NCBI GenBank assembly: GCA_964016885.1
Contig: OZ024760.1
Coordinates: 24,552,001-24,616,000 of the forward strand
DNA from: Eledone cirrhosa
Lineage: Eukaryota
Direction: 5' to 3'
Length of the DNA stretch: 64,000 nucleotides
A program made the position numbers and the translations under genes. The notes beneath the pieces are model-generated. The model worked only from the letters and a program-made list of their open reading frames with translations, had not been told where the DNA came from and did not search any database. This document shows, one piece after another, positions 33,706-48,431 of this stretch; position 1 is the first letter of the stretch; each line of letters starts with the position of its first letter.

Positions 33706-33817
33706 ATTAACACTTAACATTTAAGATTCTACCATATTATTTCATTCTAATACCATTATAAATTTTAAAGGATTGTAAATAAAACGAGTAAATCAGACAA
33801 AGTTGGAATTCCTCTTA

Positions 33818-33882
<65 letters not shown>

Positions 33883-33951
33883 TATGAAGAGAGAAGAAAC
33901 ATTTAGATATAATTAGTAATAAAATGTATCATACCTAAACTGTTCCTAAAT

Positions 33952-34046
33952 TCCTCGACTACGTAGTTTCGTGGCATAAACAAAAACAATATATCAAAGA
34001 TATAGAGTCCCTGCGAGGTCTGCCGACTTATCAAGAGGATACCTCA
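33952..34046 (-). ncRNA. U3-A8 variant type I hammerhead, unit 1
   Basis: TCCTC-TTGATAA-GTCGGCA..TGCCAC-GAAACTACGTAGTC-GAGGA. Predicted cleavage between 33957 and 33956. Confidence 0.8.
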
Positions 34047-34542
34047 TTTTACTAGTCTCAAGAACGCGTCTACACGACGTGAGAAAGAATCCCAAAAGGC
34101 GGAGGGGGAGATAGTCACGCGATATAACGGTCGAGAAACAGAGCTAAGCCTCTTATAACCACGAAGAAAATACCACGGAGGCGGAGGGGGTATTCATATC
34201 GAGGCCGTAGAAGAGGTAGTGAAGAAGGCGAGAAGTATGAGTAATGGAAGCTTTCCAGTTGTCCCCACACTTCAAAGATTGCTCGACCAGAGGGAGTTAT
34301 TAATATATTTAGAAACACACAGATACATGCGGACACACACATATATACATGAATGCATCCGCACCCAACTGTGAGTTAAGGGTGCCAACTTCACCGATGT
34401 TGCTCAATGAATGACTGGGACAGACCAATTCAGTTTGAACTAGACTGAACCAGTATCAGAGTTAAAAATACATTATGAAGAGAGAAGAAACATTTAGATA
34501 TAATTAGTAATAAAATGTATCATACCTAAACTGTTCCTAAAT

Positions 34543-34637
34543 TCCTCGACTACGTAGTTTCGTGGCATAAACAAAAACAATATATCAAAGATATAGAGTC
34601 CCTGCGAGGTCTGCCGACTTATCAAGAGGATACCTCA
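34543..34637 (-). ncRNA. U3-A8 variant type I hammerhead, unit 2
   Basis: Same sequence as unit 1, offset +591. Confidence 0.8.
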
Positions 34638-35133
34638 TTTTACTAGTCTCAAGAACGCGTCTACACGACGTGAGAAAGAATCCCAAAAGGCGGAGGGGGA
34701 GATAGTCACGCGATATAACGGTCGAGAAACAGAGCTAAGCCTCTTATAACCACGAAGAAAATACCACGGAGGCGGAGGGGGTATTCATATCGAGGCCGTA
34801 GAAGAGGTAGTGAAGAAGGCGAGAAGTATGAGTAATGGAAGCTTTCCAGTTGTCCCCACACTTCAAAGATTGCTCGACCAGAGGGAGTTATTAATATATT
34901 TAGAAACACACAGATACATGCGGACACACACATATATACATGAATGCATCCGCACCCAACTGTGAGTTAAGGGTGCCAACTTCACCGATGTTGCTCAATG
35001 AATGACTGGGACAGACCAATTCAGTTTGAACTAGACTGAACCAGTATCAGAGTTAAAAATACATTATGAAGAGAGAAGAAACATTTAGATATAATTAGTA
35101 ATAAAATGTATCATACCTAAACTGTTCCTAAAT

Positions 35134-35228
35134 TCCTCGACTACGTAGTTTCGTGGCATAAACAAAAACAATATATCAAAGATATAGAGTCCCTGCGAGG
35201 TCTGCCGACTTATCAAGAGGATACCTCA
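35134..35228 (-). ncRNA. U3-A8 variant type I hammerhead, unit 3
   Basis: Same sequence as unit 1, offset +1182. Confidence 0.8.
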
Positions 35229-35752
35229 TTTTACTAGTCTCAAGAACGCGTCTACACGACGTGAGAAAGAATCCCAAAAGGCGGAGGGGGAGATAGTCAC
35301 GCGATATAACGGTCGAGAAACAGAGCTAAGCCTCTTATAACCACGAAGAAAATACCACGGAGGCGGAGGGGGTATTCATATCGAGGCCGTAGAAGAGGTA
35401 GTGAAGAAGGCGAGAAGTATGAGTAATGGAAGCTTTCCAGTTGTCCCCACACTTCAAAGATTGCTCGACCAGAGGGAGTTATTAATATATTTAGAAACAC
35501 ACAGATACATGCGGACACACACATATATACATGAATGCATCCGCACCCAACTGTGAGTTAAGGGTGCCAACTTCACCGATGTTGCTCAATGAATATATAT
35601 ATATGCGAGATGCGAGAAAATCCACAAACCGTCCATCTAAATTCTACGCTTGAAAAGCACAAGAACTGTGAAACCGTTAAAGGAACCAAATAAATAAATA
35701 TATACATTTAAAAAAAAAGACTCCAGTAGCATTTTCGGTATCATCTTTCTTC

Positions 35753-35808
<56 letters not shown>

Positions 35809-44864: not shown

Positions 44865-45028
<164 letters not shown>

Positions 45029-45029
45029 C

Positions 45030-45849
45030 TATGTTGTCGACCTTAACCAGTGTTGCTCTATGATTAAGAGAGACAAAACAATCGAAATAATTAAATTGAC
45101 ACAATATCAGAGTTATGTAAAATATTATAAAAAGGAATAATATATATCTATGATATAAGATATGATATCTATGATATAACATTTTTGCATAGTGACCAGC
45201 GAAACTGTACAGTCGAGACTAAGAAAAAAAATAGGTATATTGTATCTATTATTCCATTTTATAATATTTTACATAACTCTGATATTGTGTCAATTTAATT
45301 ATTTCGATTATTTTGTCTCTCATAATCATAGCGTAACACTGGTTAAGGTAGACAACATACAATCTCACATACTTGTGAAAAATATATGTTTATATATACA
45401 TGTATATGTATGTATACACATATATTTGTATATCTCTCATTATTGTCTCTAACTCCCTCACGGTAGAGTAACCACGGAAGTATAGTGACTACTTTAAAGC
45501 AAACACTATATACACTTCTAGTCAACTTTACCAGCCTTCTGTAGCCTATGTATCATATCAATATCTCCCTCCGTCTTCTGAGATATTTTCACTGCTACGA
45601 GGGATTAATCCCCTTTCTTGACCGGTGTATCACGTGATAGAGTCTCCCTCCGCCTTTCTGAGATTTTCTCGCATGCTACGGACGTATGTAGTTAGGTCTC
45701 TTCCCTGAGGTGCTCTCTTGATAAGCTGGCTTACCTCACAACAATGTTACATATCTATGATATAACATTTTTGCATAGTGACCAGCGAAACTGTACAGTC
45801 GGGACTAAAGAAAATAATAGGTATATTGTATCTATTATTCCTTTTTATA

Positions 45850-45858
<9 letters not shown>
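45030..45858 (+). mobile_element. Diverged family K element: 586-bp partial tandem plus inverted 5' arm
   Basis: GAAACTGTACAGTC at 45201 and 45787. 45030-45140 is inverted versus 45247-45358. Homologous to the reverse complement of the 591-bp unit. Confidence 0.8.
45706..45804 (+). ncRNA. U3-A8 variant type I hammerhead (family K relative)
   Basis: TGAGGT..TCTC-TTGATAA-GCTGG..ACCTCA..CCAGC-GAAACTGTACAGTC-GGGA. Confidence 0.8.
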
Positions 45859-45890
<32 letters not shown>

Positions 45891-48200: not shown

Positions 48201-48431
48201 TACAATATATTAATAAATGGAAACTATATTTATAAAACCATATTTATTTTATTATACATATTTCAAGGCCACCAACAAGGCAAATTATGGTGCGCTTTCA
48301 TCAGATAAAGTACAGATTTGTTTTATAAATAAATATTGACCTACCCGGAAAAAAGACAACCTTAACGGTTGGAGCTTCCTGTTATAAACATTTTAAAGCT
48401 TGTTGAATCCTAACAAATTAAATATAACCTC

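Follow-up and report, generated by a model that had tools for sequence, protein, structure and literature searches.

The hammerhead ribozymes of Penelope-like elements (PLEs) include a U3-A8 core variant (Schistosoma Cercyon) and a palindromic helix III, and have been placed in a model in which the RNA is cleaved and circularised (PMC4209133). Natural U3:A8 pairs, palindromic dimer stems and, for about 40% of hammerheads, a pseudoknot have also been reported (PMC3088659), and each of these three features is thus already known. PLE insertions form partial tandems and inverted copies with a 30–40-bp tail at one end and a bias towards (TA)n (PMC8557442), while in vitro work has located two internal start sites for reverse transcription and found ribozyme cleavage to be dispensable for PLE insertion (PMC11167929). 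How the tandem and inverted copies are assembled and what the PLE hammerhead does are stated as open questions (PMC8557442, PMC11167929). Animal retrozymes have been argued to be non-autonomous PLEs in a preprint whose sample covers vertebrates, three insects and one coral, and in which eight of nine predicted retrozymes did not cleave (bioRxiv 10.64898/2026.07.22.740005). PMC6765202 served as further background for comparison.

The window analysed in this study, a 64,000-nucleotide (64-kb) stretch of the Eledone cirrhosa genome rich in microsatellites and with repeats of a seemingly cephalopod-like character, contains at 45030–45860 a copy of what is very probably a non-autonomous Penelope-like element/non-LTR retrozyme. 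This 586-nt repeat is non-coding, occurs dispersed over the genome and includes a predicted type I hammerhead; it would be mobilised in trans by the reverse transcriptase (RT) and GIY-YIG endonuclease of a PLE. The first-pass annotation of this DNA had given no element class. The features of the locus, and of a related array in the same window, are the following:

44902..45029, no strand: left-flank (TA)n target microsatellite
45030..45146, minus strand: arm in inverted orientation, 5'-truncated, covering +29 to +145 of the unit as numbered from the cleavage site
45136..45164, plus strand: inter-arm junction with a short duplication of loop-II hairpin sequence (repeat comparison and inference)
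45165..45218, plus strand: upstream ribozyme copy reduced to its 3' half by truncation within the loop-II hairpin, with the homologous cleavage site after 45214
45215..45800, plus strand: 586-nt non-coding unit, from cleavage site to cleavage site (alignment, ORF inspection)
45706..45804, plus strand: complete predicted type I hammerhead
45801..45860, plus strand: 3' extension to the 'short' end of the family (about +55 to +61), into (TA)n
45856..45888, no strand: right-flank (TA)n target microsatellite
33880..35610, minus strand: array of the sister 591-nt subfamily, with three ribozymes and mutually identical units

The GUC triplets ending at 45214 and 45800 are 586 nt apart, as the first-pass annotation had it, and a direct repeat of 111 nt (95% identity) accompanies them. 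Of these two predicted cleavage sites, only the second belongs to a complete ribozyme, the first having the 3' half alone. The upstream copy is indeed cut short in the loop-II hairpin and joined to an inverted arm, which matches 45243–45359 over 117 nt (94% identity) and whose outer end at +145 is atypical, most such arms stopping near +230. The junction is likely a template-switch scar. With one full and one half ribozyme, the copy at 45165–45860 would not rank as 'active' under the two-ribozyme rule of the preprint (bioRxiv 10.64898/2026.07.22.740005). No credible ORF was found in the 586-nt unit, and a tblastn search with 28 retroelement frames encoded in the genome gave no match to it. Its proposed homology to the 591-nt unit goes well beyond chance, the two sharing 70% identity (385 of 549 aligned columns) with an alignment score of 213, compared with a maximum of –67 in 200 shuffles.

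The elements of the complete ribozyme, all on the plus strand, are laid out as follows:

45706–45712 with 45732–45738: pseudoknot strands
45714–45717 with 45801–45804: stem I (4 bp)
45718–45724: core UUGAUAA
45725–45729 with 45782–45786: stem II (5 bp), GCTGG / CCAGC
45739–45773: loop-II hairpin, about 14 bp
45787–45790: GAAA (GAAAC from 45787)
45790–45799: palindromic stem III ACTGTACAGT, 10 nt
45800: C of GUC, after which the cut is predicted

The short motifs listed in the first-pass annotation (UUGAUAA, GCTGG/CCAGC, GAAAC, GUC and the palindrome) are all found where it had placed them. On sequence, the window units have the core and helices of a type I hammerhead, and self-cleavage is predicted. 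UUGAUAA, GAAA and GUC are identical in both units despite their overall divergence. The core had been called a variant; this is correct in that U3:A8 replaces C3:G8, although the same substitution is already known from PMC4209133 and PMC3088659. Core position 7 is T, A or C in 104, 17 and 4 of 125 motif-selected sequences, respectively. Loop II is about 50–60 nt long and contains one pseudoknot strand and the hairpin, which had been annotated as an inner ATATC-N3-GATAT stem; this stem is present but forms part of the longer helix. The TGAGGT/ACCTCA pseudoknot is likewise conserved, although the 591-nt unit carries ACCTCG, so that its last pair is U.G. We found no paper describing U3:A8, a pseudoknot and a palindromic dimer stem combined with a loop II of about 60 nt, and an earlier description is possible.

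Of 148 sequences, 132 have a perfectly palindromic stem III, and several distinct palindromes, 8–12 nt long, are represented. The computed energy of this stem is +1.5 kcal/mol as a monomer hairpin and –13.4 kcal/mol as a duplex; since it is unstable in the first form and stable in the second, the calculation points to dimeric cleavage. The minimum-energy fold of the monomer (–26.7 kcal/mol) is not the active fold, which scores –14.0 kcal/mol when computed without the pseudoknot.

None of the Rfam hammerhead models matched the window at the gathering score, and the 22 Rfam matches at E ≤ 10 include no hammerhead, the weak matches being hairpin and microsatellite artefacts. The long loop II is likely the reason for this. 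The lack of an Rfam match would also fit a satellite or DNA transposon-like repeat that is duplicated at the DNA level and carries a ribozyme-like motif incidentally, as would the few loci that are segmental duplicates (L022–L026). This reading is nevertheless very improbable, given that position 7 is the sole core site listed as variable in contigs assembled from public reads without a motif filter, that the helices covary, and that the copies have variable 5' ends, two fixed 3' ends and inverted arms.

Covariation was assessed on 32 sequences, obtained by thinning 97 unique matches to 39, dropping seven for indels and swapping two for the window copies. Both-sided changes occur in 15 of 33 pairs, and the covariation score is 0.275, against 0.183 ± 0.008 for shuffled alignments and at most 0.092 with slid partners; these values come from related, motif-selected sequences, in which core invariance is by construction, and carry no formal significance test. 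Helices I, II and III have such changes in 3 of 5, 1 of 2 and 2 of 5 pairs, respectively, just two pairs being counted for helix II because its register shifts between lineages. Between the 586- and 591-nt units of the window alone, five pairs are changed on both sides (one each in stem I, stem II and the loop hairpin, and two in stem III). The comparison thus supports the view that stems I, II and III and the loop-II hairpin have been kept by compensatory change across subfamilies. The pseudoknot behaves differently: although paired in 96.8% of cells of the same alignment, it has no pair out of six changed on both sides (its 5' strand being partly fixed by the search motif), and no compensation was seen among the 100 listed of 156 matches chosen to lack one pseudoknot G. 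RNAalifold, applied to the alignment, predicts the pseudoknot helix only. The suggestion of the first-pass annotation that the structure is under selection is supported by compensatory change in the stems and the loop hairpin, whereas covariation of the pseudoknot is not supported.

The existence of a real family with at least two subfamilies, also proposed there, is borne out by motif searches of the genome, which returned a dispersed family with several older subfamilies and a distant branch. The exact 21-nt core of the 586 lineage has 263 matches genome-wide (control, 0), and a motif shared by both types has 7,255 (control, 1), of which the 100 listed are all of the 591 type and just 54 have a non-A first spacer position. 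The best 40 scored copies are 91–97% identical, the window's own copy excepted. Periods are 583–597 nt, plus one of 371 nt. The latter, together with the 30 indels that separate the two window units and net 5 nt (P = 0.18 under random signs), leaves the idea that unit length is under selection unsupported. The 591 unit is present in six public runs under four organism labels, while 586-like contigs were obtained from two runs (296 in one and one in another) and from neither of two more, a comparison that covers the 3' part of the unit only and is no proof of absence. No public RNA run was listed as containing the 591 unit.

Some further characteristics of the subfamilies can be mentioned. The distant branch (L111:290–640, L183–L201) has stem III palindromes of 12 nt and an internally duplicated tail of about 140 nt, and 40 of its scored copies are 82–89% identical. 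In 586-type copies, a hypervariable stretch follows the cut site, spanning +6 to about +17 (45806–45817 in the window), with 48 distinct strings in 59 junctions compared with 10–11 for neighbouring 12-mers. Positions +6 to +11 differ even inside one insertion (7 of 25 pairs identical), and the hypervariability is absent from the 591 type. It could possibly come from RT slippage at an A-run beside stem I. A donor-like AG/GTAT closely follows the cut site in all subfamilies seen (45232–45335 in the window, and the corresponding region of the 591 unit). In the 591 type it is accompanied by a branch-point-like TACTAAT, and this region is on sequence a possible PLE-type intron.

The copies are embedded in (TA)n, vary in their 5' ends and form partial tandems, to which an inverted arm is often joined head to head. 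On the 3' side of the cleavage site, their arms stop at either of two fixed positions, which are about +60 and +230 for the 586 type and +80 and +245 for the 591 type. Over all sets, 59 of the 72 insertions with two arms combine a short end with a long one, one is a doubtful short/short and none is long/long. The combination is found in 26 of the 28 two-armed insertions of the 586 type (among 39 insertions, which remain after removing 11 overlapping or duplicated loci and 10 of other subfamilies from 60) and in 13 of 17 of the 591 type (among 22 insertions, the 13 being 11 from tabulation and two resolved by locus inspection, with the doubtful short/short here as well). It recurs in two fresh sets of loci taken in list order, in 13 of 15 for a set of 34 loci and in 7 of 12 for a set of 26 loci of the 586 lineage. 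Where the rule does not apply, an arm ends elsewhere or is unresolved. We found no paper on this family or on such strict use of one site per arm, an earlier description being possible. By analogy, the two-site ends, partial tandems, inverted arms and (TA)n targets together are the signature of PLEs, and it is by this signature that the family can very probably be assigned to the non-autonomous PLEs/non-LTR retrozymes, an already described kind.

In the mechanism that we propose, tandem copies would presumably be transcribed. The 10-nt palindromic stem III would let two adjacent ribozymes pair with each other, the loop-II pseudoknot would dock stems I and II, and cleavage would follow GUC. The RNA serving as template would be intact across the cut site, most likely as a religated circle and otherwise as an uncleaved multimer. 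The endonuclease would cut (TA)n, and the two DNA ends would act as primers on a single RNA, reverse transcription starting at two internal sites; the two cDNAs would stop at variable points before being joined head to head. In its full form, where dimerising, pseudoknot-docked hammerheads produce circles of ~590 nt, both target ends prime one circle at their own fixed sites and two strand-displacing RTs run laps, this scheme is possible but doubtful.

For the template itself, we lean slightly towards the religated circle over the uncleaved multimer, because the arms lap the cut site without a barrier. Arms of the 591 type cross one to five cleavage sites (25, 14, 3, 1 and 1 arms, respectively), and they show no excess of 5' ends close to the site (3 of 44 within +1 to +45, p = 0.66). 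A linear template starting at +1 is not supported by this same count, as the cluster of 5' ends seen by eye after the cut site failed to replicate. An element of the same class could also be copied from a linear, uncleaved read-through transcript of tandem loci, the ribozyme trimming ends or being a passenger and no circle being formed. This we regard as a serious possibility, if less than an even one. It agrees with PMC11167929, in which the main substrate is unprocessed RNA and no reads end at the cut site, and with the fresh 586-lineage set, in which all 33 arms cross one site alone. On the other hand, the repeated crossings in the 591 type without a barrier at +1 would require long arrays or repeated template jumps, and the helices persist in subfamilies that have diverged by about 30%.

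The agreement of diagnostic sites within insertions is not the same in the two types. In the 591 type, none of 534 differ between the two arms and 6 of 726 between tandem units, compared with 31.5% between insertions (in an earlier set, 6 of 397 between arms and 35.6% between insertions). The corresponding values for the 586 type are 19 of 104 for arms and 7 of 55 for tandem units, against 33% between insertions; the tandem-unit count is expected if a linear template is drawn from heterogeneous source arrays. Since such within-insertion differences amount to 13–18%, a single monomeric circle would need template mixing or later gene conversion in this type, and the mixing, together with the in vitro result of PMC11167929, argues against the circle. 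Pairing of RNAs from different loci through stem III, as a source of two-arm templates, fails for the 591 type (0 of 534), with partial mixing in the 586 type (19 of 104).

The genome carries many elements with RT and GIY-YIG domains, with 10,595 GIY-YIG candidates, of which 150 were scored. Neither 50 GIY-YIG loci from the scored ones nor 30 loci representing a second young PLE family yielded an autonomous element with termini homologous to the unit, and profile searches gave the same result. A young autonomous RT + GIY-YIG family (about 98% identity) combines (TA)n flanks with a minimal U3:A8 hammerhead and follows the short/long pattern, the latter in four of four two-armed loci read by eye. 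The tail similarity of the unit to this family is not significant (p 0.06–0.54), and it is a candidate partner only. The ORF upstream of one copy (L164) was rejected as a PLE partner, being a LINE-type frame. A very abundant young Penelope-type family (L202–L231) has 713-aa frames, 96–98% identity over 129 other scored copies and no homology to the unit. The units could in principle be orphaned pseudo-LTR (3' end) fragments left by 5' truncation of an autonomous PLE instead of a self-standing non-autonomous family, since this genome has many 5'-truncated PLE ends, which carry ribozymes and use (TA)n targets as the units do. This origin is largely refuted and accordingly improbable, as full units of 583–597 nt from site to site have no RT or endonuclease remnant and the ORFs adjoining copies belong to a LINE or to unrelated PLEs.

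Other hammerhead repeats lie in and around the window. Read by eye, the 591 array is placed between an end of the U3:A8 autonomous PLE and the tail of another PLE family (~35600–35760 and ~33740–33860), and (TA)n appears to be a shared landing site for the array and these flanking PLEs. The minimal hammerhead of the U3:A8 family is on the plus strand near 35650–35690. A different family is represented at ~48245–48320 on the minus strand by a hammerhead-like motif that has a standard CUGAUGA core and a short palindromic stem III, and a further small hammerhead-bearing repeat, also present beside many of the other loci inspected, lies at ~22200 on the minus strand. Loci L147 and L152 belong to a separate abundant family whose core is U3:A8, whose loop II is long and whose helix III is self-contained; it ends at about +17 or +97, and the window has pieces of it at ~400–480, 4948, 7190–7280 and 50851. 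In other hammerheads with a long loop II (L003:2683, L014:981, L022:1161), the candidate pseudoknot at this position differs in sequence, which suggests at the sequence level that the long-loop-II pseudoknot architecture may recur in unrelated families.

The element class and each ribozyme feature being already described, the gain is a test system rather than new biology. The family offers models of PLE insertion a substrate that is small, protein-free and present in very many copies, and whose insertions set firm constraints, namely a different fixed start site for each arm, a shared haplotype in the young subfamily and repeated passage of the cut site, and it adds a hammerhead shape that escapes the Rfam models with about 7,000 copies in one genome. 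If the scheme with laps around a circle were true, thousands of insertions would form a genomic record of twin-primed rolling-circle retrotransposition, which would be the missing mechanism for the tandem-plus-inverted anatomy of PLEs.

The family resembles the non-LTR retrozymes of animals (PMC7229834; bioRxiv 10.64898/2026.07.22.740005) in that its tandem units are non-coding and each carry a single type I hammerhead, in its occurrence as dimers to multimers and in its low GC, and its unit length is inside the 51–972 bp range of the preprint. It differs from them by the ~50–60 nt loop II with pseudoknot and long hairpin, and has no detected pseudo-LTR homology to a partner among 80 PLE loci sampled. 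With the PLE hammerheads (PMC4209133) it shares type I topology, U3:A8, G10.1-C11.1, a short stem I and a palindromic helix III implying dimers, as well as, in the 591 type, the bulged helix II of D. virilis Penelope. The palindrome is however 8–12 nt here and absent or minimal there, loop II is large and structured, and no ORF lies between the ribozymes. Insertions of EN+ PLEs (PMC8557442; PMC11167929; PMC2377424) have the same partial tandems, inverted 5'-truncated copy, one-end tail, (TA)n bias and two start sites, but their tail is 30–40 nt compared with ~165–170 nt here, and the anole element in vitro had no strand difference in start sites, whereas one site is strictly used per arm in this family. 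The base-paired contact between stem I and stem II has its counterpart in pseudoknot-stabilised hammerheads (PMC3088659), being predicted here from conservation and folding, with no compensatory change, and the repeat-type ribozymes of the same study have a 10-bp palindromic dimer helix III, as is the case here.
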